A stretch of 64,000 nt of DNA from an uncultured virus (IMG/VR IMGVR_UViG_3300027573_000025) (taxonomy: Duplodnaviria > Heunggongvirae > Uroviricota > Caudoviricetes). A program made the position numbers and the translations under genes. Of the stretch, positions 12,824 to 63,234 are shown piece after piece; positions within the stretch are counted from its first letter, which is position 1, and each line of letters begins with the position of its first letter. The notes under the pieces were generated by a model. That model saw only the letters and a list, made by a program, of their open reading frames with translations, did not search any database and was not told the origin of the DNA. The DNA lies in IMG/VR virus record IMGVR_UViG_3300027573_000025; one strand, given 5' to 3'.

Positions 12824-13125
12824 AGCAACGCATACCTGGAATGACGGAGCGGCTATTTCAAGGCAGAGTCCAGCAAGCCCTGCGGGTAGCCGGGTTTGAG
12901 TCCTACCATACCTATGACAGCCGGCGGTCGACTAAGGGTTTCCCCGACTTGATAGCCCTGCACCCAGGAAAGAAGCGTATCCTTGCCATAGAAGTCAAGA
13001 CCGAGACAGGCAAGGTGACGCTGGAGCAAAACGCCTGGCTGGATATGTTTAGTCTGTGTGGAGTCGAGACTTGGTTGTTACGTCCGGGTATGTTTGACGA
13101 GTTTTGGGAGTCGATTAGGAAGTAA
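12820..13125 (+). CDS. VRR-NUC domain nuclease
   Basis: GFPDL...IEVK...Q..W PD-(D/E)xK motif. Confidence 0.85.
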   Translation: MKQRIPGMTERLFQGRVQQALRVAGFESYHTYDSRRSTKGFPDLIALHPGKKRILAIEVKTETGKVTLEQNAWLDMFSLCGVETWLLRPGMFDEFWESIRK

Positions 13126-13591
13126 GCTGCCCGAGCAGCCGGATTGACCGACGCACCCAGCCCAAGCCAAAGGTTTTGAAAGTCTCAAGACTGGTGTAGT
13201 ACATCACCCGCTCGACGGTGACTTCCTCCAATAGCTGCGGGCCGTATTTGGCTTTTAACGCAGCCCTGGTGACGGGCCCAAGCAAACCATCGTCTTTCAC
13301 CCCTACCGCACGCTGTAGGCAAACCACGGCGTTTCCACGGCCCATATTGACGGCCATATCGAATAGCATAATGGCGATGTCGTCGGGTAGCTCGAATGCC
13401 TGCAAGGGTAGCCAGTAATCCACATAAAAGAGGTCTTTGGCCCTGTCCAGGGTAAGCCCGGCAATGTCCTCGTCGGGGTAGCTGCGCTGGCTGATGCCGT
13501 ACTTGGTGAGTCCGCCGGGGTCGACGGAATTGTTGCTTAGACTGCCCTCGTGGCCGATGACTATCTCGAAGGCACGGTCGAAGAGGGTCAT
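13115..13591 (-). CDS. Endolysin, glycoside hydrolase family 108
   Basis: HEG...DPGGLTKYGI, FDMAVNMG, LQRAVGV..DG..GP.T, F..GW.RR. Confidence 0.9.
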   Translation of the reverse strand: MTLFDRAFEIVIGHEGSLSNNSVDPGGLTKYGISQRSYPDEDIAGLTLDRAKDLFYVDYWLPLQAFELPDDIAIMLFDMAVNMGRGNAVVCLQRAVGVKDDGLLGPVTRAALKAKYGPQLLEEVTVERVMYYTSLETFKTFGLGWVRRSIRLLGQLTS

Positions 13592-13869
13592 TGGACTAGC
13601 CGGCACCCATCGGCAAACTTTGGGTTAAACGGACTCTCCGCCGGCAAGACAAGCCATATAGCCATGCCTGAAGGCGGGGGACCTGACACCTGCGTACACG
13701 AATAGACCTTTTGGTTTTGCTTGCGGAACTCGGCCACCTGCTCCGGTGTCAGCGACTGCCCTTGCCCTAACGCGTTGCCTATCAACATGCCGGTGCAGCC
13801 CGGCAAAAACGCCACGATGATAAGCAGCGCCGCTAGAAGGAGCAGGTTTTCAAGCCAGGGTTTAGTCAT
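13588..13869 (-). CDS. Lipoprotein (possible spanin component)
   Basis: Signal peptide with LPGC lipobox, in the lysis cassette. Confidence 0.7.
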   Translation of the reverse strand: MTKPWLENLLLLAALLIIVAFLPGCTGMLIGNALGQGQSLTPEQVAEFRKQNQKVYSCTQVSGPPPSGMAIWLVLPAESPFNPKFADGCRLVQ

Positions 13870-14416: not shown

Positions 14417-14769
14417 TTTGCCCCTTTCATTTGGAGAGTTCCCTCAAGAATTCCTTCCTCTATTTTTGCCTCTGCTGTATCCGCTGTCTTTTGTTCCGCC
14501 CTGCCCTTTACCTCACCTTCGATAAGCGCGAGCTTGCGAGTTGCGTCCACCAGCGCCGTGTGCATTCCGTTGGTGTGCTCGCGTATCTGGTTGACTGCGG
14601 CCATGACAAATCCGACACCTACCGCAACCATGGCTGCAACGACTATCAGCGTCACCAGCAGCCAGTTGGTCAGAAACGCACTGCGCTGCGCTTCGAGCGC
14701 CGCTAACACAGCGTTAATTACGGGTTCCGGGCTGGTCCCTATTTCAGCGGCAAATAAGCTAAACATCAT
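14413..14769 (-). CDS. Membrane protein (lysis cassette)
   Basis: One TM segment plus HTNGM motif; conserved in copy B. Confidence 0.7.
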   Translation of the reverse strand: MMFSLFAAEIGTSPEPVINAVLAALEAQRSAFLTNWLLVTLIVVAAMVAVGVGFVMAAVNQIREHTNGMHTALVDATRKLALIEGEVKGRAEQKTADTAEAKIEEGILEGTLQMKGAK

Positions 14770-15074
14770 CCACCTCTCGGCAAAGCAGGCCGGTCGAATA
14801 AGAACTTAGGAATACAACCGAACGTATCGACGGGCAGTCTATCCCAATCGATAGGCGCCCCCTTCGGCGTCGTGTAAATGTAAATGCTGAGTTTGCTCGC
14901 ACACATAATATGGTCGTGTTCGGTACTTCTCTGCGTGTGCTCCCAAACTGTCAGGGCGATGTTGAGTCCAAGCAGTAACAGCAAAAAGAAGAATAGCGCA
15001 TTGCCGCCAAACATGCGCAGAGTACCGCCTAAAGCGGATATTTCCACGCCGTCTGTGTGCATTGCTTCAGCCAT
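14766..15074 (-). CDS. Membrane protein
   Basis: One TM segment, two conserved Cys; conserved in copy B. Confidence 0.7.
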   Translation of the reverse strand: MAEAMHTDGVEISALGGTLRMFGGNALFFFLLLLLGLNIALTVWEHTQRSTEHDHIMCASKLSIYIYTTPKGAPIDWDRLPVDTFGCIPKFLFDRPALPRGG

Positions 15075-15077
15075 TGT

Positions 15078-15194
15078 CTACGGTGTCATTACCTTGGCGC
15101 AAGCCGCTCTGTTGGCAGTCGTAGTCACAAGACTGGCGCATATCAGCTTGAGTGCTTTGTCGAAACGCTCTAACAGAGCGGCATTACATTCCGT
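15078..15194 (-). CDS. In-frame 38-aa extension beyond the UGA of the beta-helix gene (candidate Sec/readthrough tail)
   Basis: S-UGA-TECNAALLERFDKALKLIC...CAKVMTP; homologous frame conserved in copy B. Confidence 0.65.
   Translation of the reverse strand, partial: TECNAALLERFDKALKLICASLVTTTANRAACAKVMTP
15166..15180 (-). promoter_or_regulatory. Bacterial SECIS-like hairpin
   Basis: CGCUC-UGUUA-GAGCG starting 14 nt after the UGA, GU in the apical loop; equivalent hairpin in copy B. Confidence 0.5.
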
Positions 15195-17357
15195 TCACGA
15201 CTCCATCATGGTGTATGGGCCGACGGTCAGCCGTGGTGTGTTGGTGTAGGTGTCGATAGCCGCCCCGCTCCCGTCGTATACCCTAAAGTCATAGGTCGTG
15301 CCAACCGGAGCCGAGGTGCTTATCTTCAGCACATACTCACATTCCGTCTCGGAGTTGTTTAAGGCGATGCTTGGATAGTCGCTGCTAGTGCGTATCACGG
15401 CACAAGCGGTATCGCTTGCCTCGTCGCTGGTGAGTATTTCCGTGGTCGCCGTGCCTGCTGCCACAATGTCGGTGTCTGCGGTGATGCCGTGCCATGAGAT
15501 GAAGTCAGCACCGAAGGCGTCCGGTGTCAGCGTGTAGGCGCCGCCGTCTTTCGCATACCGCAGGTTATAGACGCTGCCAACGGTATCGTCGCTGCGAAAC
15601 TTGATGCGCAAGCGGAATGCCGCGCCCGGTGGCAGGGTGATGGGCACGTTCTCGGCGCAGGTAGCGCATTGCGTGACCACCGTATTAGCCGCGCCTCGTA
15701 GCTTGAAAAACTGATAGCGGGACTGCACCACTGCATGACTCACCCCAGCCCCCACGTTGTTTGTGCCGCTTGACGCTGCGTAAGTACGCACCTTGGCATA
15801 TACCCCGCCGATGGCGAAGCTATCGGTCAGGGTAGGACTTGCCGAGCGCGTCATGGCGTCGGTTAGGCTTTGCCCGTTGGTGACGGCTGAAGCCAAGACC
15901 ACTTCGACGGTCGATAGACCACTGATAGCCGCGCTGACCAGCCCGCCGTTGCCTAGAGTCTTGGATACGCCGGCCACAACAATAGCCCAATTCCCCACGG
16001 TCGGTGTTTGCAACGTCACGCCGTTTTTCGTCGATTGGACGGGGCAATCGTAGGCAATGTGATAATGCGTCGGCTCGTCGTTCTCGACGACGGCTTTGTT
16101 GCGCACGCACGCCTCGTAAGCCCCCTGGTCGGGGTTTGCACCAACATAGGTTAGCCCAGCGATGGGGGTGCCGCCATCTATGGCGACACTGCCTTCTTTT
16201 AAGTTGAAGTCGTAACCTGTTGGATCAACAAAGATATTAGTTTGTGTGCCGGTTACAAGATTTGTCGCACCCGGAGTTGTAATTTGTGACCCGGCTCCTG
16301 ATGCGTTGCCTAGGGCAATATTGTTTTTAGTATTTGTGCAACTGCCACAATAAATTCCAGAATGCCGGTTGTTTACAACAACATTGTTATAGACCTTGAA
16401 GGAACTAGATACGCTAATTCCTGCCCCCGTTGGATCGCTCGCAGTTGTTATGCCGGGATTTTCAGTGGAGTTGCCAGCATCGACAACAATATTTCGTTGA
16501 ACAATCGCGCCACCAGTGTTGCTGTTCCCAACATATATCCCTCGACGCCCAACACTTTTTACAAAATTGTTTTCGATTAACCCACCTGAAAATACGACAC
16601 CAGTAGAACTATAGTATTGTATGCCTAGTCCATGAACGTTTTCTATTCGATTCCCGCGAATTGTGGCGTTATTGCAATGGCTGTAGATGCCGTGAGTGCC
16701 AGCCCCATCGCCACCAAATTCTTCCCAACTACTAATCCACCAGCCTTCTATAACGGCATTATCACAAAAAGCACTGTCACTGCTTGACGTAAACGCGCTA
16801 CCGCCATTTGTCATGCTGCCCGTATTGACGGCTGTAAAATTGCGCCATTCGCAGTTGGTGCAGGTCGCGCCAGTGATTCTCGAAACATGGGATTGCGTAG
16901 CAATGTTGACAGTGTTGTCAATTTTGAATGAATCAAAGACTATGTTGGATCGAGTCACGCCTGAAAAATAAACAATATAATCTCCACCGGCGACAGGTCG
17001 AATCACGCAACCGGGATGGGTCTGCGTTGCCGCTGCCAAAGGGTATAGGTTTTCACACCTAATAGTGGTTTTTTGCGATGTAGATGGGCCGGATGGAATT
17101 GCACTTCCCGACATCACAACTTGGACCGATCCGACCGTAACCACTTCGGTGTATGTGCCTTCTTCGACCATGAGAGTATCGCCACCGGCAAGACACCCAA
17201 TTCCGGCGGCGATAGACCTTTTCGCCTGAGTCGCTACGGTCGGCTTGGCAACTGAGGCGAAGCACGCATTGGCGTCGTTGCCGGAGCGTGAAATCCAGTA
17301 AGTTGCCGCCTCGGCTTGGCTGGCAAGTAGCACAAAGAGAATTGCAAGTAGTTTCAT
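15195..17357 (-). CDS. Signal-peptide-bearing right-handed beta-helix (pectin-lyase-like) protein
   Basis: MKLLAILFVLLASQAEA signal; GDTLMVEEGTY, parallel beta-helix repeats, DFNL..GS.AIDGG, PDQGAYE. Confidence 0.8.
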   Translation of the reverse strand: MKLLAILFVLLASQAEAATYWISRSGNDANACFASVAKPTVATQAKRSIAAGIGCLAGGDTLMVEEGTYTEVVTVGSVQVVMSGSAIPSGPSTSQKTTIRCENLYPLAAATQTHPGCVIRPVAGGDYIVYFSGVTRSNIVFDSFKIDNTVNIATQSHVSRITGATCTNCEWRNFTAVNTGSMTNGGSAFTSSSDSAFCDNAVIEGWWISSWEEFGGDGAGTHGIYSHCNNATIRGNRIENVHGLGIQYYSSTGVVFSGGLIENNFVKSVGRRGIYVGNSNTGGAIVQRNIVVDAGNSTENPGITTASDPTGAGISVSSSFKVYNNVVVNNRHSGIYCGSCTNTKNNIALGNASGAGSQITTPGATNLVTGTQTNIFVDPTGYDFNLKEGSVAIDGGTPIAGLTYVGANPDQGAYEACVRNKAVVENDEPTHYHIAYDCPVQSTKNGVTLQTPTVGNWAIVVAGVSKTLGNGGLVSAAISGLSTVEVVLASAVTNGQSLTDAMTRSASPTLTDSFAIGGVYAKVRTYAASSGTNNVGAGVSHAVVQSRYQFFKLRGAANTVVTQCATCAENVPITLPPGAAFRLRIKFRSDDTVGSVYNLRYAKDGGAYTLTPDAFGADFISWHGITADTDIVAAGTATTEILTSDEASDTACAVIRTSSDYPSIALNNSETECEYVLKISTSAPVGTTYDFRVYDGSGAAIDTYTNTPRLTVGPYTMMES

Positions 17358-40934: not shown

Positions 40935-41420
40935 CTATGGAGTGGTGTAACCGATTATCGTGATTTTGGTTAATTGTGTGGCGATGCCCAACACGCAGAT
41001 TGCATGTCCGGCGGTGATATGGATTGGCGTTTGAAGCTGAATGATTTGCACCGACTGCGCATTGGTCACGCCGACGTATTTGGTGCTTACGTTGTCGGCT
41101 GGCAATACCGCCGTGGTGCTAGTGCCGCAATTTGTCCCGGTGCCCGACTGGATAGACCACTGATTCGCCGTCGAAGTCGTGGACTGATTGATAATCGTGG
41201 TGATGTGATGCTGTTTGTCGGTAACAACGGCTTTTATTTCGGCTAATGAGGCGCCGACACCCGCGTGTCCCACGGTCCATTCCTGGGCGGCGCTGCCCTG
41301 GCGGGTGTACCATTGCGCGTCGGCTGGTCGCGTGTTCATCATTAACGCACTCAACCCGAACCACACCAACACAACAAGAAGTGCTATACCGGCGCGATAC
41401 TCTTGGATTACTTTTAACAT
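40935..41420 (-). CDS. Signal-peptide/TM-bearing virion-type protein
   Basis: AAGGAG RBS; hydrophobic N-terminus ending ADA. Confidence 0.7.
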   Translation of the reverse strand: MLKVIQEYRAGIALLVVLVWFGLSALMMNTRPADAQWYTRQGSAAQEWTVGHAGVGASLAEIKAVVTDKQHHITTIINQSTTSTANQWSIQSGTGTNCGTSTTAVLPADNVSTKYVGVTNAQSVQIIQLQTPIHITAGHAICVLGIATQLTKITIIGYTTP

Positions 41421-42034
41421 GAGTGCTCCTTCGGCAGTCCTAAAACGACGCGGCTTTGAGTTCCATCGCACCACTCTTTAATTTGCCAACGGCTTTCAAT
41501 CTTGGCTTGCCACCAGTGAGGCGATTCGATGGTAAGGTGCAAATCCTCGATAATCTCCATGTCGCTAAAATCTGCCGTGCTGGAAGGTACATGAGCGATG
41601 GTAAGAAGCCCGCCTTTGCGCGTAATCTTCGCCATGCCGTCCAGTGTCCGGTCGACATACTGCGGCGGTATATGCTCCAGCACATCGCAACAAAGTATCC
41701 AGTCGAATACCGGGAGGCCGTCGAGTTCCCACATATTGCCTTCGATGAATGGCAAGTCCACCTCACGCACGTCGACGAAATCGAACAACGTCACGTTGAG
41801 AACCCTGGGTTCTCCCCCTGGCATTTTCTTTTTATAGTCAGCAAGGTATTTACCAGCCCGCCCGGTACCGCAACCCAAGTCGATAACGGTGTCGCCCTGC
41901 TCTCGCGCAGAAGAAAAGAGAAAGTAAGCGGCTACACGCTCGCCTGGCGAGCCTCGGCGATAGGACTTATGCTGATAGGCACGCCAATACTTGCGCTTCT
42001 CCGATTCGAGGTCGGCTAAACTAGACTGCATCAT
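41414..42034 (-). CDS. Class I SAM-dependent methyltransferase
   Basis: VIDLGCGTG and DWILCCDVLEHI motifs. Confidence 0.85.
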   Translation of the reverse strand: MMQSSLADLESEKRKYWRAYQHKSYRRGSPGERVAAYFLFSSAREQGDTVIDLGCGTGRAGKYLADYKKKMPGGEPRVLNVTLFDFVDVREVDLPFIEGNMWELDGLPVFDWILCCDVLEHIPPQYVDRTLDGMAKITRKGGLLTIAHVPSSTADFSDMEIIEDLHLTIESPHWWQAKIESRWQIKEWCDGTQSRVVLGLPKEHSC

Positions 42035-42233
42035 CTGCGCGATCTTCCACCCAACCACCATACTCTTTGGTCGTTGCACTGCTTGGGCTTGCCGGTCTTT
42101 GGAAACGGCAGATAGTGTTGCCGGCTTTGTTGACTGCCATGTGCGCGTTGGTCCAGGTGTGGTCGGCTATCTTAGCCTTGGCCCATTCTTCAGCGGCTAT
42201 GCGCCCTACGGCGGTATCAGCGAAATTTGCCAT
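42021..42233 (-). CDS. Hypothetical protein
   Basis: GGAGG RBS. Confidence 0.65.
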   Translation of the reverse strand: MANFADTAVGRIAAEEWAKAKIADHTWTNAHMAVNKAGNTICRFQRPASPSSATTKEYGGWVEDRADDAV

Positions 42234-44589: not shown

Positions 44590-44750
44590 TTTATCCTTTC
44601 AGGGTTATATACTCTCGGCAATTAAGCGAGACCGAGAATCGCCCGGTGGAGGTGCCCGCATTGCACGGACTCCATCTGACTCGTCGTGAGTCAACGCCAC
44701 GGCTTTCCGTGGAGCCATCGGACTAACCTTGAAAGGTTAGGTGCCCGAAG
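44590..44750 (-). promoter_or_regulatory. Structured 5' leader RNA of the major capsid gene
   Basis: Five hairpins; CGGGCAC/GUCCG internal-loop motif twice; invariant between copies over the 127 bp visible. Confidence 0.65.
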
Positions 44751-44761
44751 AAAACGCTTAC

Positions 44762-44989
44762 CTAATCGTCTTTTTCACCCTTGCCCGCCGGAGCATCGCC
44801 GCGATAGTAGCGGTCAACGATCTCGTAGGGTACTCCACTTAGGCGCACGGCATCGCTTCTGCTAATACCGTTCTTTTTCATTCTGCCGATTGCTATCGTC
44901 ATCGCGCCTGACTCCCAAACATCCTTTTTAACGTCTATTGAATGCTGGCGCTTCATAAGAGTTTTTTTGTCTACCATTATTTCAGACAT
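44762..44989 (-). CDS. Small HTH-like protein (copy B)
   Basis: Homolog of 345-572. Confidence 0.65.
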   Translation of the reverse strand: MSEIMVDKKTLMKRQHSIDVKKDVWESGAMTIAIGRMKKNGISRSDAVRLSGVPYEIVDRYYRGDAPAGKGEKDD

Positions 44990-44999
44990 TGCATTTCTC

Positions 45000-45848
45000 C
45001 TATATTTCTATCGTACCCGGATAACCCTTTTTCATCAACTGATTAACATACTCGGTAACGTCGGGATCGCCCTGGTGATACGCTTTGTACTTGGGGTTTT
45101 CTTTGTTACGGATGATGTCCTTTGCCTCCAACACCGCCGCATTGCCGTCGTGCGACGTTGCCCCGTTAGCCGTACCACCGAAATCAGTTTGAGTCATTTT
45201 CGCCACCAGTCCTATTAGTTTTACCATTGCCGGATGATCGCCTAGCGCCAGCGCCTTGTTCTCCGAGGCTTGCCCGTATGGAGCCACACCATCGTTGAGT
45301 AAGTCCTTGAGTTCGGGAATATCGCGGGAGAGCAAGTCTACGTTCTGCTTGTACTCGGCAATGCGTTGGGTCGACTCGCCCTTGAATATATCCGCCATCA
45401 GCGCGTCGACGTGCTCGCCCTGAATAAAGTCCACTTCGGCGCCCTTGGCAGGTAGGAGAGCGGGTAGAATATCCTTAGCGAAGGTTTCGACTAGCCCCGC
45501 CGCTTGCGTCTTAGACAGTCCTAGCTGGTGCGCTTTTTCGCGGAAAACGCCTAGAGTCTTATCGGACTTGATGACTTCATCGGCCATGCCGTCAAACTTG
45601 AACTCGTAATCGTCGGCTTTTGCCGGCGGCATACGGTCGGCGAATACATGCTGGAGTTTCGGCAAGTGTTGAGTCTTCCAGGCTTCGAGTTCCTTGGGAT
45701 CGTTGCCGGGTATCGCCACCGAGCGGCCCTGGTACGACTCCATCTCACTGAAGCCCTTCACCAGCGAGCCAACATCGTTGTACTTTTGTACTGCCGAACT
45801 GCCGCGTAGTTCCTCGGGTAGACTCTGCACTATGTCGTCAGGTAGCAT
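45000..45848 (-). CDS. Scaffolding protein (copy B)
   Basis: Near-identical protein to 583-1434. Confidence 0.8.
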   Translation of the reverse strand: MLPDDIVQSLPEELRGSSAVQKYNDVGSLVKGFSEMESYQGRSVAIPGNDPKELEAWKTQHLPKLQHVFADRMPPAKADDYEFKFDGMADEVIKSDKTLGVFREKAHQLGLSKTQAAGLVETFAKDILPALLPAKGAEVDFIQGEHVDALMADIFKGESTQRIAEYKQNVDLLSRDIPELKDLLNDGVAPYGQASENKALALGDHPAMVKLIGLVAKMTQTDFGGTANGATSHDGNAAVLEAKDIIRNKENPKYKAYHQGDPDVTEYVNQLMKKGYPGTIEI

Positions 45849-46105
45849 TACATTTCCTCATTCAATTTGACTAAGACAGCCGTCCTACTCATGGCGATGG
45901 TCAGAATGGTGCGCGATAAGCGCCGCATTCCTTCAGCCATGCCGCGCTCAAATTCCGTAGCGCCCTCCACGTCCTCTGAAATAATAGTGCTGAAATAATC
46001 CCACAACACACCGCCCTGGAATACCGCCGCCCGTATTGCCTCGTCGATTTGCTCAGGGGTGCGCTCGACATAAGTGAGCCTGATTTTACGCTGCCGCTTC
46101 ATCAA
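45848..46105 (-). CDS. Small head-module protein (copy B)
   Basis: Homolog of 1434-1691. Confidence 0.6.
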   Translation of the reverse strand: MMKRQRKIRLTYVERTPEQIDEAIRAAVFQGGVLWDYFSTIISEDVEGATEFERGMAEGMRRLSRTILTIAMSRTAVLVKLNEEM

Positions 46106-46268
46106 GCTGCTTATCCCACTGGTTGATAAACTCCACTACATCCTTGAGTGTCGGTTCATGGTCGTAGCACTGACTCATGCCCCGATTGTCTATCTTCAAA
46201 AAGAGTTGATACGGCATTAACTGAGGCGTCCTGCCGGGTAGTATCGAGTAGTCGCAAAATACCTTCAT
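46086..46268 (-). CDS. Hypothetical protein (copy B)
   Basis: Homolog of 1672-1854. Confidence 0.65.
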   Translation of the reverse strand: MKVFCDYSILPGRTPQLMPYQLFLKIDNRGMSQCYDHEPTLKDVVEFINQWDKQLDEAAA

Positions 46269-47941
46269 GCCGCTGCCTGACCTCCGCTTGCACCTTCTCT
46301 TGTTACCTTGATATACGGGGCAACTTTTCCAGCGGCTTCTGCCGCCCCCATGCCGAGTGCCGCCATCTTCTCGGCGTTCTGCTGCGCGAGCAGCTTGTTG
46401 ACCTTCTGGTTGAACTCGTACTCGCTGATAAGCATGTCCTGGGTGCCGCGAATCTCGAAGAGCTTGCGGCTGACTTTCTTGAAGTCGACAAGCTGAAGTA
46501 CCTGGGGGTCGAACTGTTGAATACCTGCAAGGTCGGCGACGGACTGCTGGAGGTCGGTTATCTCCTGGTTTCTTGCTGCACGCGCCAATGGCGATTCGTA
46601 GCTTACGGCTAACGCGCCGTCCACCGCACCTTGTCTGAGAATGTCGGGAGGTTCTTGCAACATGCCGGCGTGCGCCATGTTGTCGAGCGTGACGTTGATG
46701 ACTACGCTTTGATAGTCCTGTTCAAGGCGGGAATATACCGGACCTTGGATTTGCTGGAGTAAATTAAGCCGGGCATTCGTTTCAAACGCCGTAAGTTCTG
46801 GTTTTTCTCTGCTGAGGAGATTAAGGATTTCAGAGACGTGGTAGATACGAAGTATCTGCTCGACTTTCCTTTTACGCATGAGATCATCGGCTTGCCAGTT
46901 AGGCTGGTCAAACAACTGTCGCACAGAGTTGTTTGGATCAGTGACAACAGTATCGCCTCCAGCTCTCTTATTGAGAATACCGTTGATGATAGAATTTCTT
47001 TTCGATAGAGTCGGCGGGTCAAGCTGGCGGTCCCACATGAGCATTTCTTTTTTATCTGCTTCATTCATCGTCCTCGCATCGGGCAGCGCCATTTCACTAG
47101 GACCGCGCCCGTAAGGCTCACCGGCTATCAAATCGTAACGCGCCACTGCCACCGGGAATAGCCGGTAGCCCGACTCACGCACCAGCCTTAGTTTTTCTTT
47201 CTCCACCCAACATGACGCCCAGGGTAGTTGGTTGGACTTCTTGAGTTTGGTGCCGGAGTATTCGAGATTCTCGCGTGGACTGATGGAGTGTAGAAACGTC
47301 ACGTCACGGTAGGGAGTCTTGTCGAGTTGACGGTTAAGGTCATCGGATAAGCCGTAGTTTACTCCGCCGTCCTCTTCGAACATCTTGTGCGCATTGACTA
47401 GCTTGATAGTCACTTCCCGGATAAAGGTGTCTATCTTGCCGTCCGGTCCCTCACACATAACGTAACTGCCAAAGGGAATAGCTGTGTAACGCAGTTGATT
47501 CAGTCCATTGCGGGTCTGCGGTACCATCTCGCACAAAAGCGGTCCATTGCCCATATTGATCCAGGAGTTGATGGCTTGGCCGTTACCCTGGTAGAAGTTA
47601 CTGCGCCGGAATGCCAAGAGCATTGCGGTGGTCCAGTCCTTGAGACAATTAGCGGCATCGGAATCCTCGTTTATTTCCGGGTCGGAATGCCCGAGTCCAA
47701 ACCAGCGGGTAGCCGAGTTGCACACCGCGCCCTGGATAAACTGGCTGAGAATGAAAGAGCCGTAGGTGGCCGTCGAGTCGAATATCTTGCGGGTGCGCCT
47801 CTCGCCTGGCGCCCTGGTGCGCTCAACGTCTTTGTAGAACGGGGCTATGTAGTCGATAACATCTTGTACAATGGTGTCAAGGTTCACCCTCTCTGCCTTG
47901 AGCGTTTCGTAATTCTTGGCGATGGACTGAGGTAGGTTCAT
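46265..47941 (-). CDS. Portal protein (copy B)
   Basis: Homolog of 1851-3527, mostly synonymous changes. Confidence 0.92.
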   Translation of the reverse strand: MNLPQSIAKNYETLKAERVNLDTIVQDVIDYIAPFYKDVERTRAPGERRTRKIFDSTATYGSFILSQFIQGAVCNSATRWFGLGHSDPEINEDSDAANCLKDWTTAMLLAFRRSNFYQGNGQAINSWINMGNGPLLCEMVPQTRNGLNQLRYTAIPFGSYVMCEGPDGKIDTFIREVTIKLVNAHKMFEEDGGVNYGLSDDLNRQLDKTPYRDVTFLHSISPRENLEYSGTKLKKSNQLPWASCWVEKEKLRLVRESGYRLFPVAVARYDLIAGEPYGRGPSEMALPDARTMNEADKKEMLMWDRQLDPPTLSKRNSIINGILNKRAGGDTVVTDPNNSVRQLFDQPNWQADDLMRKRKVEQILRIYHVSEILNLLSREKPELTAFETNARLNLLQQIQGPVYSRLEQDYQSVVINVTLDNMAHAGMLQEPPDILRQGAVDGALAVSYESPLARAARNQEITDLQQSVADLAGIQQFDPQVLQLVDFKKVSRKLFEIRGTQDMLISEYEFNQKVNKLLAQQNAEKMAALGMGAAEAAGKVAPYIKVTREGASGGQAAA

Positions 47942-48126
47942 TATTGTCCGACATTGCCGAGATTAGTGCCGGTGATAATGGTTGAACTACGACCCTGTGC
48001 CATCATGGAGCGGCGCCGGGCCTCGGTTTCAGACTGTTGGATTTGCGTACTTGCCGTCGATGGCGGGGTTTTCTGCTTGGGGAATTTAGGTGGTGGTGCG
48101 CCGGCGAACATATCTCTTAGCATCAT
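47941..48126 (-). CDS. Small Pro-rich virion protein (copy B)
   Basis: Homolog of 3524-3706. Confidence 0.7.
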   Translation of the reverse strand: MMLRDMFAGAPPPKFPKQKTPPSTASTQIQQSETEARRRSMMAQGRSSTIITGTNLGNVGQ

Positions 48127-48313
48127 GGGCGGGGTACTCCTAAGAACCATTACTCGCTTTTAGGCTTGCTTGTCAATAGGTTATCGGTTATAAGCGGCTA
48201 TGAACATGATGGTGTTCACAATCAATCGTTTTTAGTTTGCGCGGTCAGACAGCCAGCCCCCAAAGCTGGTGCTGCCATCACAGCGGTCTGGCCGCGCATT
48301 TTCTAGGAGTACC

Positions 48314-49381
48314 ATGGACAAAGTCGACGCGGAAGAATTTACTAAATCACTAGGTCAAATTGTCGGCGGGTCGATGCGGCAGATTGAACTGGCAGACAAA
48401 CTAGGCGTGCCGAAGGCTTTGGGAATGAAGCTGCCCGAATGGGTGAACGAACACCTTGGCGGCTATGCGAAACTCGCCAAGCAGGACCGCATCAAACTGA
48501 TTCTTGAGTACAAGACTGAGGAGAAACTTAGCACGCGCAAGATTGCCGAACGGTTAGGAGTCGGCAAGGATACAGTGCGCCGTGATTTAAATGGCGCAAA
48601 TGCGCCAGCCATAGATGAGGAAAGTGAGTTAGATCAAGGCACCGTTGACGACGAAAATGCAGAGAGTGGCGCAAATGCGCCAGCTACACCCTCCACCAAA
48701 GCCGCCCGCACCCGGACAGCGCACGAACAGATAGCCAAGTTCGCCTTCGATCAGCCAGCGGCGCCGGTGCCGGATGGCGATGCTATTCGCTTGGGTGATT
48801 TCTACGAATTATCGGCAGAGATAAAAGACGACACGGTAGACTTGATTTTTACCGATCCGCCCTACGACGACGAATCGTTAAAGTTGTTTGACCGCATGGG
48901 TGAAGTGGCAGCGCGTATTTTAAAGCCAGGCGCCAGTCTCGTCACCTATCTCGGACACATGCAGATATTGGAGGCCGGTCGACTTCTTTCAAAACATATT
49001 CGCTTTTGGCACCCGCTGTGCTGCATGCACGCCGGACCGTTTGCCAGGATGACCGAGTACGGAGTTATCGAGTCATTTAAGCCGATGCTGTGGTTCGTGA
49101 AGGGGACACGCAGCGACAAACACACATTCATTACCAGCGCCATCAGCGGCGCGCGAGAGAAAGATCATCACGAGTGGCAGCAGGCAGAAAGTGAAGCCGC
49201 TTACTTCATCGAGAATCTTAGTCCAAAAGGCGGACTAGTTGTTGACTTTTTTGCAGGCGGGGGAACGACAATAGTTGCCGCAATGGCACTTGGTCGACTG
49301 GTTATCGGTTACGAGATAGAAAAACGCCACTGGATAAAAGCCAATGACAGAATAAGGAAATCACATGACTCGCAGATTTAA
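48314..49381 (+). CDS. HTH-fused N4/N6 DNA methyltransferase (beta class)
   Basis: LSTRKIAERLGV HTH; DLIFTDPPY before VDFFAGGGTT; AGGAG RBS. Confidence 0.88.
   Translation: MDKVDAEEFTKSLGQIVGGSMRQIELADKLGVPKALGMKLPEWVNEHLGGYAKLAKQDRIKLILEYKTEEKLSTRKIAERLGVGKDTVRRDLNGANAPAIDEESELDQGTVDDENAESGANAPATPSTKAARTRTAHEQIAKFAFDQPAAPVPDGDAIRLGDFYELSAEIKDDTVDLIFTDPPYDDESLKLFDRMGEVAARILKPGASLVTYLGHMQILEAGRLLSKHIRFWHPLCCMHAGPFARMTEYGVIESFKPMLWFVKGTRSDKHTFITSAISGAREKDHHEWQQAESEAAYFIENLSPKGGLVVDFFAGGGTTIVAAMALGRLVIGYEIEKRHWIKANDRIRKSHDSQI
48592..48684. repeat. Two copies of palindrome TGGCGCAAATGCGCCA (18-bp direct repeat)
   Basis: 48592-48607 and 48667-48682. Confidence 0.85.
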
Positions 49382-49928
49382 TACTTACTTCACTTGCGAA
49401 CATTGCGGCAAGCGGTCAACAGCGGAAAGCGGCTTCGGTCGTTGGATGCGCAACAACAGCGAGTTAGACTCCGGCGCCGGAATTGTGAGAACCGACACCG
49501 ACCACACTATCCTGCGATATAAAACTCACGACCAGGGACGAGATTTTCAACTGATAATGGACGTTGAAGTAAAAGAACACGGCAGCGAACCAGACCAATG
49601 CCAGATAGACATTTGTAATTTCAAACATCAACTAGCAATCAAGTGGTTGAAAAACATGCACGGGTCGAAAACAATTTACACTCACAAATTAAAATCGGCT
49701 ATGTCGGGGAGATTGGTGCGGGTAAGATACTTCGGATTTCACTTGCTACAGTTTGAAAAAACCAACCCCTCTGATTCAACTTGGATAAAGTGGGATAGGC
49801 GCGTCATAAACACCAGACAACTTATCTCGCTTCTGACATTCGAGACACATCCGTACAAACTAGACAAAAGACTCGATACGTTTCTTCGAGATAGGCACAA
49901 ACAGGAACCGCTTTTATTATCGAAGTGA
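49365..49928 (+). CDS. Putative PD-(D/E)xK nuclease-like protein
   Basis: TDTD...DVEVK...Q motif, N-terminal CxxC, coupled to the MTase. Confidence 0.5.
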   Translation: MTRRFNTYFTCEHCGKRSTAESGFGRWMRNNSELDSGAGIVRTDTDHTILRYKTHDQGRDFQLIMDVEVKEHGSEPDQCQIDICNFKHQLAIKWLKNMHGSKTIYTHKLKSAMSGRLVRVRYFGFHLLQFEKTNPSDSTWIKWDRRVINTRQLISLLTFETHPYKLDKRLDTFLRDRHKQEPLLLSK

Positions 49929-51533
49929 ACTAGGTTGCCGGTCGTCCTGATTAAGGTTAGTCAACACCTTAAGCGGGCGACCGGCATTCTCATTCATTCC
50001 CGGCACGCCGTAACGTGATAGCAGGTAAGTAAACGCATCGCCAAGGTCGGAGAAGATACTCGGCTTCTTGGGCAGTGCCGAGCGCAGCTCTCCGGTTGGG
50101 GACTTGGCATAGTACCAACGCCCGTCAAGTGCCCTTATCAAGTCCTTGGTGTAGGGTCCATCCTCGACGATAACGAACCGCTTGCGGTCAAAACTCCTGA
50201 CCAGAATATCCTTGCGCACAGGCCACTGAACCGGCCCAGGCTCGAACCAGCCACCGCCTAGCATACTTTCGATCATCTTCAAGGCGGCATTCTCGATGTC
50301 GGCTTCCGATCCCTTCATTTTCTCCATGGTACCCTGGCTAGGGTCAAAGCCGACAAAGGCAAAGGTATCGGGGTCTCTCAGCACCCAAGGCGCAAAGCGC
50401 CCTAACCACGGAGTCACCATTTCTTCCATCAACTGCTTCATGCCGGCGCCCTTGATGAACAAGCCGGCCTTTACCCTAAGCGACCGATCGAGATACTGCG
50501 CTATGACGCAGGTAGGGGTATGGCCGAAGTCAAAACCCATGTATACCGGCTCTCCCGGCAGGCAGGGAATGATCTCGTTACTGGTATTGTCGTGGCGGGT
50601 AAAGCCCTGGGCGACCTGATCGCCCATCATAAGCACGCCGGGCTGACCCAAGATAAGCCTTCTCACCAAGTCCGGTCTATTCGCCAGCGAGTCCACCCAC
50701 CCTAACCGATCGCTCTCAGAGGCACGCTCACCGGCTGGCACCCTAAACCACTGGGCATTCTTGACCGTCGACGACACCCCCATGCACATCTCCAACGGAC
50801 TGCCTTGGGGGTAATCGTTGAAAACCGCCGGCCAGGGAAGTCTCATCTTGTTGAATATCTCACGGAATTGCTCAGGATGGGCAAACACCGGATCGTAAGT
50901 AGGGTTAGCCCGCTGCCATGTCCAATGATCCTCGTCGGGGTAGTTTTCCGTCGTCACCGCCGGATAGAAATGCGACGGTATGCGCCCGCTGGACTGTGAG
51001 GTCAACCCCAGGTTCCAGGCATCCTCACTTACCCCGCTACTCGTCACCATGACCGCGGACGGCGCCGGCTCCTCAAACCATATCCCCACGGTCTCCATCC
51101 TCATCCGGTCCATCGCCCCCTGATCCTCAATCCCAAACAGATCAACCCGTACAAGAGGAGTTCCAGCAAGGTAGAAAGTAGCCACATGATCGTTGTCACT
51201 AAGTCGCCAACCCCCCTTAAATATCGCATTCTCGAAGCTTTTAATGGTTTTCTGTTTGTGGGAGGTAAAGGTATCGGTTACTCCGACCCAGGGAACGGGG
51301 AGGGGAAACCCCGCCGCATGGTGCGCCCTGGCGTGCTCTATCGCCCCGACCATCCACCCGATCGTCTTACCGTCCCCCCGAGTCCCAAAGCAGAATATCT
51401 CCCGCCTATCCGGATGCTTCCCCCCATCCCTGATGGTCTGGACAAACTCGGCCACGACAGGCTGCTCCATGAAGCTGATCTCAGCCTTCTGGTTTGCCTG
51501 ACGGGGGTCTATCTTGTGACGGAGTTTGGGCAT
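49917..51533 (-). CDS. terL: Terminase large subunit (copy B)
   Basis: GTRGDGKT, WFEE and GFDFG motifs. Confidence 0.9.
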   Translation of the reverse strand: MPKLRHKIDPRQANQKAEISFMEQPVVAEFVQTIRDGGKHPDRREIFCFGTRGDGKTIGWMVGAIEHARAHHAAGFPLPVPWVGVTDTFTSHKQKTIKSFENAIFKGGWRLSDNDHVATFYLAGTPLVRVDLFGIEDQGAMDRMRMETVGIWFEEPAPSAVMVTSSGVSEDAWNLGLTSQSSGRIPSHFYPAVTTENYPDEDHWTWQRANPTYDPVFAHPEQFREIFNKMRLPWPAVFNDYPQGSPLEMCMGVSSTVKNAQWFRVPAGERASESDRLGWVDSLANRPDLVRRLILGQPGVLMMGDQVAQGFTRHDNTSNEIIPCLPGEPVYMGFDFGHTPTCVIAQYLDRSLRVKAGLFIKGAGMKQLMEEMVTPWLGRFAPWVLRDPDTFAFVGFDPSQGTMEKMKGSEADIENAALKMIESMLGGGWFEPGPVQWPVRKDILVRSFDRKRFVIVEDGPYTKDLIRALDGRWYYAKSPTGELRSALPKKPSIFSDLGDAFTYLLSRYGVPGMNENAGRPLKVLTNLNQDDRQPSSLR

Positions 51534-51537
51534 TCAA

Positions 51538-51729
51538 TTACTTCTCTGGAACACTTATCAGCTTGGCATGCTCAGGACAAAACTCCACACTGGTAAATGG
51601 ACTGTGATGACCTATATCCCTCGATAACGTCAGCCATCCAGTTTTACTATCAAGTATTTCTCCAGCATGTATCTCCATCGAAGCATCACACCCCTTGAAG
51701 TCACACCTGATAATTACCTTATGGGACAT
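51538..51729 (-). CDS. Small Cys/His hypothetical protein, copy-B insertion
   Basis: AAGGAG RBS; CD..GC...FCPEH. Confidence 0.7.
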   Translation of the reverse strand: MSHKVIIRCDFKGCDASMEIHAGEILDSKTGWLTLSRDIGHHSPFTSVEFCPEHAKLISVPEK

Positions 51730-51781
51730 CGGATAACTCCTTGTGCTGCCTGGGGTCTATCTTGTGGCGGAGTTTAGGCAT
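51719..51781 (-). pseudogene. Duplicated terL 5' end (20-aa mini-ORF)
   Basis: MPKLRHKIDPRQ identical to TerL residues 1-12, then diverges to a stop. Confidence 0.75.
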
Positions 51782-52400: not shown

Positions 52401-52520
52401 ACTTCCTCAAAGTGTTGCTTAAATGGCAATGGTGGGCGTTGTAGGGGTACTGTCGTCGTGGTCGCTAAGTGAAGCATGGACCCTTGATAGTTTAAAATGG
52501 GGGAAATGGGAAGGGGACTA

Positions 52521-52626
52521 CTTAACGTGGAGGCGTATGGCCCTAAAAAAGGGGTCCCACCCCTCACCTCGTAGGCAAAACAACCCCCCCCATGCCACTA
52601 CTACCAGCACCACACTCCACACTCCC
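52521..52626. other. Conserved non-coding block, candidate packaging site (copy B)
   Basis: Matches 6540-6645. Confidence 0.45.
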
Positions 52627-53259: not shown

Positions 53260-53262
53260 TAT

Positions 53263-60412: not shown

Positions 60413-60718
60413 CTAAGTTTGCGTTGCGTCCTCTATTTTCTGACTTGCACGTCCCGCCACTTCGCCTTCGATAAGCGCCAGTTTGCGGGTCGCGTCCACC
60501 AGCGCCGTGTGCATTCCGTTGGTGTGCTCGCGTATCTGATTGACTGCGGCCATGACAAAACCAATCCCTATCGCGACCATCCCTGCAATAATTATCAAGG
60601 AGACCAGCAGCGAGTTGGTGAGAAACGCCGACTCTTTTGCTTCGAGCGCCGCCAGTACGGCGTTGATGACAGGTTCGGGATTGTTCGCTATTTCAGCGGC
60701 AAATAAGTTAAACATCAT
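60413..60718 (-). CDS. Membrane protein (copy B)
   Basis: Homolog of 14413-14769. Confidence 0.7.
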   Translation of the reverse strand: MMFNLFAAEIANNPEPVINAVLAALEAKESAFLTNSLLVSLIIIAGMVAIGIGFVMAAVNQIREHTNGMHTALVDATRKLALIEGEVAGRASQKIEDATQT

Positions 60719-61023
60719 CCACCTCTCGGCAAAGCTGGCCGGTCGTATAGGAATTTTGGAATACAGGGAAATGTATCTACCGGCATTCTATCCCAGTCAA
60801 TAGGCGACCCCTTCGGTGTGGTGTAAATGTAGATGCCGAGTTTGCTCCCGCAGATAATTTGCCCATGCTCCACGGCGCGCTGTGTGTGCGACCATATCGT
60901 TATTCCGATGTTGAGTAGAATTAGCACCAGCAAAAAGAAGAAAAGCGCATTACCGCCAAACATGCGCAGAGTACCGCCGAATGCCGATACCTCAACGCCA
61001 TCTCTGTGCGTTTCTTCTGCCAT
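60715..61023 (-). CDS. Membrane protein (copy B)
   Basis: Homolog of 14766-15074. Confidence 0.7.
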   Translation of the reverse strand: MAEETHRDGVEVSAFGGTLRMFGGNALFFFLLVLILLNIGITIWSHTQRAVEHGQIICGSKLGIYIYTTPKGSPIDWDRMPVDTFPCIPKFLYDRPALPRGG

Positions 61024-61026: not shown

Positions 61027-61128
61027 TCATGGTCCTATCACCTTGGCGCACACGGGCGTTACCACACCCTCGCAAATCAGCTTGATTGCCTTGTCGAGCC
61101 GCTCATACAGAGCGGGTAAGCAATCTTC
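61027..61128 (-). CDS. In-frame 33-aa extension beyond UGA (copy B)
   Basis: S-UGA-EDCLPALYERLDKAIKLICEGVVTPVCAKVIGP. Confidence 0.65.
   Translation of the reverse strand, partial: EDCLPALYERLDKAIKLICEGVVTPVCAKVIGP
61099..61115 (-). promoter_or_regulatory. SECIS-like hairpin (copy B)
   Basis: CCGCUC-UGUAU-GAGCGG starting 13 nt after the UGA. Confidence 0.5.
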
Positions 61129-63234
61129 TCACGACTCCATCATCGTGTAGCTGCCCACGGTCAACCGTGGCGTGTTGGTGTAGGTGTCGATAGCCGACCC
61201 ACTGCCGTCATATATCCTAAAGTCATAGGTCGTGCCAACCGGCGCCGACGTGCTTATCTTCAGCACATACTCACACTCAGTCTCGGAGTTGTTTAAGGCG
61301 ATGCTTGGGTAGTCGCTTGAGGTGCGTATCACGGCACAGGCGGTATTGCTTGCCTCGTCGCTGGTGAGTATTTCCGTGGTCGCCGTGCCCGCTGCCACAA
61401 TGTCGGTGTCTGCGGTGACGCCATGCCATGAAATAAAGTCGGCGCCCATCGCGTCCGGTGTGAGTGTGTAGGCGCCGGCGTTCTTGGAGTACCGTAGGTT
61501 ATAGACGCTACCAACGGTATCGTCGCTACGAAACTTGACGCGCAGGCGGAATGCCGCGCCTGGCGGCAGGGTGATAGGCACGTTCTCGGCGCAGGTAGCG
61601 CATTGCGTGACGACCGTATTAGCCGCCCCGCGCAGCTTGAAAAACTGATAGCGCGACTGGACGACGACGTGCGCCGGCGCCGCCCCTACGTTGTTTGTGC
61701 CGCTTGCCGCCGCGTGTGTGCGGACATAAGCATTAAAGTGGCTGACGTTCACGGTACCGTTGGGGTCGCCTATTGATACGGAGTCCATGAGCGATGGCGC
61801 TGCGCTGCGCGTCATAGCATCAGTCAGGCTTTGCCCGTTGGTGACGGCTGAAGCTAGGACGACTTCGACGGTTGACTGACCGCTGATGGTCGCGCTTACC
61901 AGCCCGCCGTTACCTAACGTCTTGGACACGCCGGCGACGACTATCGCCCAATTACCCACCGTGGGCGTTTGCAGCGTCACGTTGTTACGCGACGACTGGA
62001 TAGGGCAGTCGTAGGCCGTATGGTAATGCGTCGGCTCGTCATTCTCGACGACGGATTTATTGCGCACGCATGACTCCAAGGCGCCTTGGTCCGGTTGAGT
62101 ACCGACAAAGCGCCCGGTGCTTCCAGACCAAGTTCCTACTGTTGAGATTTGCGTCCCCGCGTCGATACAAGCAGAGCTATCCGATAAGCTGAAATTTCCA
62201 TTGGCGGGGTCAATCATACAACCCGCCGTGGTCCGGTTTGTGGTGATAGTAACATCCGGGTCGGTGCCGCTAATTGCCGTGCCGCCGACTTGGATTATGT
62301 TATTGGCGATGAGACACGCCGAGCCGGTGGCACAACCGCTGATGGTGATGCCGGGGACTGCCGAGGCTTCGTAAATCGTGTTGTGAAGCGCCTCGTTTGC
62401 CGTACCGTGCATTGTAATCCCGGTCGTGGTGTAATCTGCAACGATATTGTTGTGAGCGGTGTTTTTGTTGGATTGACTACCAAAATATATCCCATCCCGG
62501 TGCGTTGCCCCATGAAAATAGCTGTTGCGAATGACATTATTTGTAGGCAAAACGTAAAACTGTATCCCGTGTCCGTCGTAGTCCGTGCACTCAATATGCT
62601 CCATGATTGAGTTGTGCCCTGCCCAATAAAGGCAATGCGCCCCCGGCTGGTGGTCGGCTGTGCTCCAGCGGCTTATCTTCCCCCGGCTGATGCGCCAGCC
62701 ATTCGCCGAGCTGCTTGGGCCGATTGCCGCGCCGGTGTCCACCGCTTGCCCTGCTGGTGGTCCAAGGCATTCAAAATCCTCAATGACTATGTTGGTCGTT
62801 GCCGCGCTTGAAGTGCCATCAAAACAACTCGTGCCGGTGGTGGCGTTGCTCAAATCCCACTTGAGATACTTAAAGGTAACGTTAGACCGCGCCGAGGTGA
62901 AAGCAACTCCCTTGACCGCCGTGCCGGTAGGTTGCAGCACCGGCCAACTTGCCTTGGTTGCCAATTCACCCCTGATCGTGATGCCGCTCGTTGGATTGGT
63001 GATCGTTGCGTTGGTGGTATAGGTGCCCGCCTTGACATAGACCTCGTCGCCGCTTGCCGTAGCGCAGGCAACGGCTCTAGCAAACGATCCGTAATTAGGA
63101 GTCGGGTCTGCGGTGCCGTCAATATCCGTGCAAACAGCGGAGTTACTGCCGCCACTCGACGCCCAATAGCGTGTAGCGTTGGCGTCGGTGGTTATCAGCA
63201 ATGCAAGCAGAGCAAGTAGAAGTCTCATATTCAC
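61129..63234 (-). CDS. Signal-peptide-bearing beta-helix protein (copy B)
   Basis: ANA signal; diverged beta-helix, conserved C-terminal ~300 aa. Confidence 0.8.
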   Translation of the reverse strand: MNMRLLLALLALLITTDANATRYWASSGGSNSAVCTDIDGTADPTPNYGSFARAVACATASGDEVYVKAGTYTTNATITNPTSGITIRGELATKASWPVLQPTGTAVKGVAFTSARSNVTFKYLKWDLSNATTGTSCFDGTSSAATTNIVIEDFECLGPPAGQAVDTGAAIGPSSSANGWRISRGKISRWSTADHQPGAHCLYWAGHNSIMEHIECTDYDGHGIQFYVLPTNNVIRNSYFHGATHRDGIYFGSQSNKNTAHNNIVADYTTTGITMHGTANEALHNTIYEASAVPGITISGCATGSACLIANNIIQVGGTAISGTDPDVTITTNRTTAGCMIDPANGNFSLSDSSACIDAGTQISTVGTWSGSTGRFVGTQPDQGALESCVRNKSVVENDEPTHYHTAYDCPIQSSRNNVTLQTPTVGNWAIVVAGVSKTLGNGGLVSATISGQSTVEVVLASAVTNGQSLTDAMTRSAAPSLMDSVSIGDPNGTVNVSHFNAYVRTHAAASGTNNVGAAPAHVVVQSRYQFFKLRGAANTVVTQCATCAENVPITLPPGAAFRLRVKFRSDDTVGSVYNLRYSKNAGAYTLTPDAMGADFISWHGVTADTDIVAAGTATTEILTSDEASNTACAVIRTSSDYPSIALNNSETECEYVLKISTSAPVGTTYDFRIYDGSGSAIDTYTNTPRLTVGSYTMMES

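Follow-up and report, generated by a model that had tools for sequence, protein, structure and literature searches.

The DNA analysed here, referred to throughout as the window, is a 64,000-nucleotide (nt) stretch from an uncultured member of the Caudoviricetes (IMG/VR record IMGVR_UViG_3300027573_000025), and it consists of two related ~44.6-kb podovirus-like genomes in tandem (units 1-44622 and 44623-64000). Each carries one copy, A or B, of a gene for a beta-helix-like protein that closes with a UGA stop codon and is followed, in the same frame, by a further open stretch that we call the tail, with a hairpin at its beginning and the start of another gene at its end (Table 1). Read past its stop, copy A gives MMES-stop-TECNAALLERFDKALKLICASLVTTTANRAACAKVMTP-stop, then T, then the MAEAM of the next gene; copy B gives MMES-stop-EDCLPALYERLDKAIKLICEGVVTPVCAKVIGP-stop, then R, then the MAEE of the next gene. 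This translation confirmed an initial annotation of the window, which had placed the UGA of a ~710-amino-acid gene at 15195 and 61129 and had quoted the in-frame peptides behind it. Both beta-helix copies, the tails, the hairpins and the neighbouring genes all lie on the minus strand. Gene callers overlook the tail, and the annotation shows a 120-nt "intergenic" gap in its place.

Table 1. Positions of the beta-helix genes, their tails and the features around them within the window (ORF, open reading frame; aa, amino acids)
Feature	Position	Strand	Remarks
Beta-helix gene, copy A	15195..17357	-	720 aa, ends MMES-TGA; from the ORF list
UGA of copy A	15195..15197	-	TGA kept in 5/5 variants
Tail (extension), copy A	15081..15194	-	38 codons, TECNAALLERFDKALKLICASLVTTTANRAACAKVMTP; TAG stop at 15078-15080, 3 nt before the next ATG
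Hairpin, copy A	15166..15180	-	CGCUCU-GUU-AGAGCG; loop starts 20 nt after the UGA; -6.5 kcal/mol alone
Downstream gene, copy A	14766..15074	-	102 aa, single transmembrane segment; ATG 3 nt after the extension stop
Antisense ATG-started ORF over the tail, copy A	14884..15249	+	121 aa; third positions coincide with those of the sense frame
Beta-helix gene, copy B	61129..63234	-	701 aa as listed, ends MMES-TGA; TGA at 61129-61131
Tail (extension), copy B	61030..61128	-	33 codons, EDCLPALYERLDKAIKLICEGVVTPVCAKVIGP; TGA stop at 61027-61029, 3 nt before the next ATG
Hairpin, copy B	61099..61115	-	CCGCUC-UGUAU-GAGCGG; loop 19 nt after the UGA; -10.0 kcal/mol
Downstream gene, copy B	60715..61023	-	Copy B of the 102-aa gene; from the ORF list
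Antisense ATG-started ORF over the tail, copy B	60833-61150	+	105 aa; third positions coincide with those of the sense frame
GH108 endolysin	13115-13606		Reached through a run of small genes headed by the 102-aa gene

The product of copy A begins with a signal-peptide-like segment (MKLLAILFVLLASQAEA/AT), followed by a right-handed beta-helix and a C-terminal beta-sandwich. Its match to the Pfam family Beta_helix PF13229 (25.4 bits, E 1.3e-5) lies below the gathering cut-off of 25.9, and on this sub-threshold match we describe the 720-amino-acid protein as beta-helix-like rather than as a certified PF13229 member. The last 200 amino acids were modeled by AlphaFold2 (AF2) as a beta-sandwich with a predicted local distance difference test score (pLDDT) mostly >90, and a fold search with this model returned generic beta-sandwich matches only, at a template-modeling score of ~0.3. 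A signal peptide is uncommon for a tailspike, and suggests that the protein may instead be an exported, non-virion polysaccharide-degrading enzyme. A Sec-type signal peptide (17300-17357, minus strand) was also seen in all eight of the relatives read (P0011, P0013-P0017, P0020 and P0022). P0011, a 699-amino-acid representative, is 91% identical to copy B and likewise ends MMES.

An open frame behind a stop and a TGA stop carry no weight by themselves: among the 75 window ORFs of at least 100 amino acids, TGA closes 28, and 22 are followed in frame by at least 33 open codons. The genetic code is standard. Reassignment of TGA to a sense codon (codes 4 or 25) was ruled out, since TGA ends such a share of the ORFs and the beta-helix family terminates at this point.

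Five natural variants share the junction

Relatives of the locus were recruited from IMG/VR and JGI metagenomes with the 102-amino-acid downstream gene and the C-terminal 200 amino acids of the beta-helix protein, and a scan with the tail peptide added one more locus. Five distinct versions of the junction were obtained: A (shared by L001-L003 and L013), B (shared by L004), the B-like L016, L017 and L026. All five have MMES-TGA, 33-39 open codons, three Cys residues and a tail stop that stands 3 nt before the following ATG. The features that the initial annotation had listed from the two window copies, namely the synonymous codon pairs, a frame-preserving 15-nt indel, the three invariant Cys and the spacing of stop and ATG, are all present. 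Within the flanking GAG-TCG-TGA there are three free sites, too few to reveal an extra constraint on the TGA, and tail codons 1 and 4 are occupied by five different codons in the five variants.

The most informative variant is L026 (tail coordinates 1198-1311), in which the downstream gene is a different one, beginning MKTIPAGLLAHY, and the stop-to-ATG spacing is retained. Between A and L026 the tail is 89% identical and the beta-helix domain 76%; between A and B the corresponding values are 55% and 89%. The tail is missing from all seven loci in which the 102-amino-acid gene follows other genes (L014, L015 and L018-L022). Because it is kept in L026 beside another neighbour and is absent from these seven other loci, the tail travels with the beta-helix clade and not with the downstream gene.

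No further variant came from wider scans. An exact 15-mer search of IMG/VR returned 41 loci, of which the real ones were only the five known contigs; a scan of IMG/VR with the family alignment gave the same five contigs; and contigs of four sequencing runs showed a B-like replacement of the stretch and a version of the 102-amino-acid gene in an HNH context, with no new variant. The clade is a small group of uncultured freshwater podoviruses, and the source runs that carry the DNA are freshwater sediment and groundwater metagenomes.

The tail evolves as coding sequence

Comparison of the variants revealed several signs of coding constraint behind the UGA: firstly, A and L026 differ at 13 codons, nine of them synonymous and four non-synonymous (ratio of non-synonymous to synonymous proportions, pN/pS, 0.21; Fisher 6e-4), with changes distributed 3/2/12 over the three codon positions and with all seven changed codons between codons 5 and 35 synonymous; secondly, the changes between A and B are distributed 9/7/17, and the remaining sense-frame pairs (the near-identical B and L016 excluded as a pair) give pN/pS of 0.41-0.52 (Fisher 0.007-0.046); thirdly, sense frames 1 and 2 contain stops and have ratios of at least 0.67 (at least 1.06 in a subset of pairs); fourthly, both indels, of 3 nt and 15 nt, preserve the frame. 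The codon-usage likelihood of the tail is -3.98 to -4.13 per codon, as compared to -3.90 to -4.17 for phage genes and about -4.5 off-frame. The conserved arrangement and the codon-periodic substitutions together indicate that the stretch behind the UGA is almost certainly translated. For the copy A tail, AF2 predicts two helices (residues 202-223 and 227-236, pLDDT 65-78).

The beginning of the tail bears on where translation enters it. Codons 2-3 encode [E/D]-Cys in all five variants and differ at third positions only (GAA/GAT/GAC and TGT/TGC), flanked by the hypervariable codons 1 and 4, which suggests that translation begins at or beside the UGA. The same six bases can pair with a downstream GCA-MUY, without a mismatch in B and L016 and with one at the centre in A, L017 and L026, so the argument for translation from the UGA is not clean.

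The coding signal might also be read on the opposite strand. In both copies an ATG-started ORF (121 and 105 amino acids) spans the tail in the frame that shares its third codon positions with the sense frame; if this were the gene under selection, the open sense frame would be its by-product. The initial annotation had overlooked this ORF, and it yields two points against a tail on the sense strand. The antisense frame is open throughout in the five variants and produces the same signal in the ratio of non-synonymous to synonymous substitution rates (dN/dS), its pN/pS of 0.26-0.55 equaling that of the sense frame, and the sense/antisense codon-usage log-ratio lies between -0.5 and +2.8, against 13.7 +/- 7.2 in real genes, and thus does not clearly favor the sense frame. 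An antisense gene would, however, overlap ~190 nt of the well-supported 102-amino-acid gene as well as the end of the beta-helix gene, on a strand opposite to that of all neighbouring genes, and no promoter-like site was found for it. L026 has no canonical-start antisense ORF of at least 50 amino acids over the region. Moreover, in nine of ten (non-independent) pairs the sense frame shows the more conservative amino acid replacements, and the 5-codon deletion cuts through the middle of a hydrophobic stretch in the antisense product, whereas in the sense product it affects only a Thr-rich loop between the two predicted helices. We therefore regard an antisense gene as very improbable.

A stem-loop follows the UGA

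In all five variants a hairpin of 6-9 base pairs (bp) with G-U in its loop lies 19-23 nt after the UGA. The copy A hairpin sequence is unchanged in four variants, B has the loop UGUAU, and synonymous CGT-to-CGG changes extend the stem to 7-9 pairs in L016 and L026. The initial annotation had described a GU-loop hairpin 19 nt after the UGA in both copies; the hairpin is indeed present in both, at the quoted distance in B and at 20 nt in A.

This arrangement resembles the element that directs selenocysteine insertion in bacteria. The published bacterial selenocysteine insertion sequence (bSECIS) model (PMC13188914) calls for a 3-9 nt loop with G in its first two positions (mostly G[G/U]), on a stem of 4-16 bp placed 16-37 nt from the UGA, and for a minimum free energy (MFE) of <= -7.5. 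The geometry and the loop G-U of this model are found in all five variants. Its energy, by a hairpin-only calculation, is reached by B (-10.0), L016 (-13.2) and L026 (-12.4) and missed by A and L017 (both -6.5 kcal/mol), so that the description of the hairpin as SECIS-like holds for three variants and is marginal for two.

We quantified how often such a hairpin occurs elsewhere. A Watson-Crick hairpin of at least 6 bp with GU at the start of the loop, 16-37 nt downstream, accompanies 15 of 2041 TGA trinucleotides in the window, both copies included, and among the 42 TGA stops of ORFs of at least 100 amino acids the two copies rank first (B) and third (A). The simple bSECIS model passes 77 of 2039 TGA trinucleotides (3.8%) and a single one of those 42 stops, which is that of copy B. 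When synonymous codons were resampled with the peptide held fixed (2000 trials for each variant), an equal or better hairpin arose in 8.9% of trials for A, 7.7% for L017, 1.25% for L026, 0.45% for B and 0.15% for L016. The hairpin exceeds chance.

Two further observations concern the fold. The hairpin of B and L016 is nested within a second stem, GAUUGC/GCAAUC (61069-61125, minus strand, in B; 1082-1135 in L016), giving a two-tier fold of -18.0 and -19.7 kcal/mol, respectively; the A-type variants are mismatched centrally. A role of the hairpin as a terminator was rejected, as it has no T-run and a terminator scan did not flag it.

If structure were all that is selected here, the stretch could be an untranslated spacer holding an RNA element, made up of the hairpin and the ribosome-binding site of the next gene, with the codon periodicity arising by chance or as a relic. 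Open stretches after stops are common in the window, as described above, and the outgroup L012 manages without this one; the 3' end contains AAGGTGAT-type sequence that could be the ribosome-binding site of the next gene; and B and L016 fold clearly better than their synonymous resamples (z -2.1 and -3.0). The other three variants, A, L017 and L026, fold no better than resamples, however, and a spacer leaves the substitution pattern unaccounted for: a single codon phase takes 12 of the 17 changes that separate A from L026, those in codons 5-35 are all synonymous, and both indels are multiples of three. Since the TGA is common to all five, the stop was already in place when the constraint acted. 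An untranslated spacer is, in our judgement, improbable.

Probable read-through of the UGA as a route into the tail

Translation of the tail raises the matter of how ribosomes reach it. In the reading that we favor, the majority of ribosomes would terminate at the UGA and release the normal beta-helix protein, complete by the standard of its family, while a minority would decode the UGA and run 33-39 codons further, adding a short two-helix, three-Cys C-terminal tail; ending 3 nt ahead of the next ATG, these ribosomes should couple some translation of the next gene to read-through. A low level of read-through at the stop is probable, and we give slightly better than even chances to the specific proposal that recoding of the UGA yields, from the same strand, a less abundant and extended version of the secreted beta-helix protein. 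A short and a long form are the best reading of the locus because the tail is coding-like, has no canonical start shared by the variants and moves with the beta-helix gene.

The position of start codons is central to this proposal. The first canonical in-frame start falls at codon 22-23 in four of the five variants (GTG codon 23 in A and GTG codon 22 in B), which bears out the earlier statement that neither window copy has an ATG, GTG or TTG near the beginning of the tail. L017 is the only variant with an early ATG (codon 5), and no Shine-Dalgarno sequence lies within 10 nt of it. The combination expected of read-through, that is a conserved stop, an in-frame extension under purifying selection and no start of its own, is thus observed, with four variants of five lacking a canonical start before codon 22. 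In addition, the 102-amino-acid gene is always tightly abutted by an upstream stop, and its tight coupling at this locus would fit only if ribosomes cross the tail. Ways around the stop by a +1 frameshift of the prfB type or by hopping from the UCG were rejected: the +1 and -1 frames run into stops after 4-12 codons, and no UCG landing site precedes the conserved Cys.

Besides the antisense signal, several observations weigh against decoding of the UGA. The whole comparison rests on five closely related variants. The base after the UGA is A or G, with no conserved leaky context. Tail type disagrees with the domain tree, which implies recombination breakpoints near the UGA, and a separable module fits this equally well. 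The nearest outgroup, L012, has a beta-helix homolog with 53% identity over the domain, which ends AYIAGW-TAA with no tail, and its 102-amino-acid homolog begins ~20 nt past the TAA; all five tail-bearing variants have TGA. Finally, a HMMER search with the last 200 amino acids, the read-through residue and the tail against 1.84 billion representatives found 281 relatives, and among the 150 listed the matches end at query position <=206; with typical relatives of ~690 amino acids the match stops within a few residues of the C-terminus. The tail is thus not a feature of the family at large.

Searches of protein and phage collections for the tail itself were negative. A word-based search found no match among proteins of 417-1329 amino acids and none among proteins of 27-88 amino acids; Pfam and PHROGs gave no family for the 38-amino-acid peptide, the ESM Atlas no usable match and the PDB sequences none. 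Neither tblastn of the tail against 50,697 phage records nor a nucleotide search with the 2.9-kb region in the phage collection gave a match; the beta-helix relatives come from metagenome contigs.

The tail could also be entered without decoding of the UGA, as a separate gene of ~27-35 amino acids with a non-AUG start (the CTG at codon 7/8, or the L017 ATG at codon 5) or by re-initiation after the UGA. Its product might be a partner or chaperone of the beta-helix protein, or the ORF might serve to couple the next gene. The in-frame CTG is invariant in all five variants and is the single near-cognate codon that they share ahead of the conserved core, with the L017 ATG three codons before it, and a GGAG lies just upstream of the UGA in every variant; the recombination of the tail as a module independent of the domain, and the placement of its stop for coupling to the next ATG in two contexts, would suit such a gene as well. 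Four of the five variants nevertheless have no early canonical start, so that a start of its own with a ribosome-binding site was not found. The CTG sits in the stem of the hairpin and at least 25 nt from the GGAG, the L017 ATG is not preceded by a Shine-Dalgarno sequence, the [E/D]-Cys codons that come before the CTG differ at third positions only, and there is no called small protein of this kind among 5.8 billion clusters. Of the starts that the initial annotation had allowed for, an early ATG occurs in L017 only and the in-frame CTG in all five variants. Decoding of the UGA appears to be the most economical route into the tail, with somewhat better than even standing, and a non-AUG or re-initiated small gene comes next, though we consider it unlikely.

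Possible selenocysteine or near-cognate decoding of the UGA

Given read-through, we infer both the decoding event and its agent from the sequence, and selenocysteine insertion and a near-cognate leak are about evenly split as agents. In the first case, host SelB carrying selenocysteine (Sec)-tRNA would bind the hairpin while the UGA occupies the A site, and the product would be an exported protein with a U-x-x-C motif at the start of the first tail helix. Three variants (B, L016 and L026) have a geometry and hairpin-only energies within the bSECIS model, and the loop G-U and the 19-23 nt spacing occur in all five; in the window the simple model is rarely passed by TGAs, and copy B is the sole passing stop of 42. 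A Cys lies three residues past the UGA in four of the five variants, and the AF2 helix beginning at residue 202 starts directly after the UGA position. The signal peptide implies that the tail would be in an oxidising compartment. Selenocysteine users are common in freshwater sediment and groundwater habitats.

Several results speak against selenocysteine. Neither Cys nor any other sense codon was found aligned to the UGA among the 150 listed of the 281 HMMER matches, and the Cys-for-UGA homologs that the initial annotation had in view did not appear; nearly all selenoproteins have Cys homologs, according to PMC12013277 and PMC13188914. The UGA-x-x-Cys that had been called conserved is not invariant, as in L017 the Cys and the hairpin both lie one codon further from the UGA (U-S-N-D-C). 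The hairpins of A and L017 reach just -6.5 kcal/mol. Covariation, too, is lacking, with no stem pair altered on both sides in the five variants. Local folds are not more stable than shuffles in three of the four variants folded, and those of A, L017 and L026 are not better than resamples. The 501-nt junction region gave no relevant RNA family in Rfam at E <=10, the window has no tRNA genes, and no Sec-pathway domain occurs among the 52 window ORFs scanned against Pfam. The window has no host flank, and searches for clues to the host, and thereby to selA, selB, selC and selD, gave distant matches only. We consider selenocysteine at this UGA possible but doubtful.

A plain leak, in which a near-cognate tRNA decodes the UGA at a low rate, would require neither host machinery nor a motif, and the hairpin would then be incidental or ribosome-slowing. 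UGA is the leakiest bacterial stop, and in Qbeta A1 it is read as Trp. That the UGA is a stop in all five variants, that the hairpin is marginal in two of them and shows no covariation, and that the spacing of the Cys and the hairpin varies are all consistent with such a leak. By contrast, a leak leaves unexplained both the hairpin, which is a 0.15-9% event given the peptide and places the copies first and third among the 42 TGA stops, and the conserved acidic-Cys pair after the UGA; the base behind the UGA (A or G) is not conserved either. A leak is likewise a tentative option, about as doubtful as selenocysteine, and sequence alone cannot separate the two. Of the earlier proposal that short and long forms arise through host Sec machinery, the two forms stand as the best reading, while selenocysteine is one possible agent.

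Genome organization and neighbouring genes

The two tandem genomes meet at an exact 127-bp direct repeat (1-127 = 44623-44749), behind which identity is 70-92% over long stretches. The repeat might be the terminal repeat of a concatemer, or the arrangement might reflect prophages in tandem or two strains joined during assembly; A-type and B-type junctions are found on separate IMG/VR contigs. The portal matches PF12236, and the capsid matches PF19821. The portal is at most 30% identical to known phages, and the ArdC-like protein at most 46% identical to its matches, which are on plasmids of many phyla. A scan of the whole window against Rfam at the gathering score returned no family, and there are no RNA runs among the listed sequencing runs carrying the DNA.

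The family of the 102-amino-acid single-transmembrane protein has invariant H46, R49, E52, H53, C58, W77 and C87. At least four different genes serve as its upstream partner, and the upstream stop always abuts or overlaps it. A contig scan of genomes with the 102-amino-acid protein gave three FlhB matches (L005-L007), all rejected as spurious and traced to the LRMFGGNALF motif of the protein.

Two further beta-helix/pectate-lyase-like genes lie in the same phage (34844-37168 and 38760-39965, both minus strand; PF13229 and PF00544), bringing the candidate polysaccharide-degrading proteins to three in one 44.6-kb genome. The window also holds methyltransferase genes (N6/N4, C5 and one that is dependent on S-adenosylmethionine) and an ArdC-like anti-restriction gene (48269-49381 plus strand, 51774-52400 minus strand, 41414-42079 minus strand and 54403-55314 plus strand), a set that is not alike between the two tandem genomes.

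Discussion

The safest statement about this locus is that a conserved tail, translated to all appearance, lies behind the UGA of a double-stranded (ds) DNA phage gene, together with a SECIS-like hairpin. Bacterial selenoprotein genes, with E. coli fdhF as the prototype and the consensus as given in PMC13188914, share with it the conserved in-frame UGA, the coding conservation behind it, a stem-loop with G-U at the start of the loop 19-23 nt after the UGA and a Cys 3-4 residues on. Unlike them, the present gene has no Cys homolog that we could find, carries its UGA where proteins of the family normally end and not within a catalytic core, has a hairpin that is marginal in two of five variants and shows no covariation, and belongs to a dsDNA phage. 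Among the titles and abstract openings listed for selenocysteine and SECIS elements in bacteriophages, we found no report of a natural phage selenoprotein, and a corresponding search on UGA read-through in phage tail fibers brought up a single paper, on code 15.

Phages have other ways of making two products from one gene. The coat gene of Qbeta ends in a leaky UGA that is read by tRNA-Trp to give A1, and the likeness is plain: most of a phage late protein is made short, and a small part is extended at its C-terminus through UGA. Qbeta is, however, a single-stranded RNA phage whose extension is long and a virion component, whereas here the tail has 33-39 amino acids, the protein is exported and probably non-virion, and a conserved hairpin stands behind the stop. 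In T7 gene 10A/10B and other phage extensions, -1 frameshifting at a slippery site is used. Like the present case, T7 10A/10B concerns podovirus late genes with short and extended products from one mRNA in a fixed ratio; unlike it, the gene described here has no slippery site, and its extension follows a stop in the zero frame. Small ORFs coupled by termination-reinitiation offer a third comparison, given the stop 3 nt before the next ATG in two contexts and the upstream abutment of the 102-amino-acid gene, but such ORFs have an ATG, GTG or TTG of their own, and here four of the five variants have no early start.

Recoding of stop codons is well known from RNA phages and cellular selenoproteins; for the late genes of tailed dsDNA phages there is, to our knowledge, hardly any documentation of it. 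The locus described here offers a compact case of ~60 nt, comprising a UGA, a hairpin and a Cys-bearing tail, with five natural variants and two gene contexts. If the UGA is decoded by a plain leak, a Qbeta-like two-form strategy would operate in a podovirus, possibly metering the gene behind. If it is decoded as selenocysteine, the phage would be using its host's 21st amino acid: this would be a natural bacteriophage selenoprotein, made in small amounts as an extended form whose tail has a U-x-x-C for redox chemistry or metal binding, and the level of that form, perhaps along with the next gene through the closely spaced stop and ATG, would follow the selenium status of the host.

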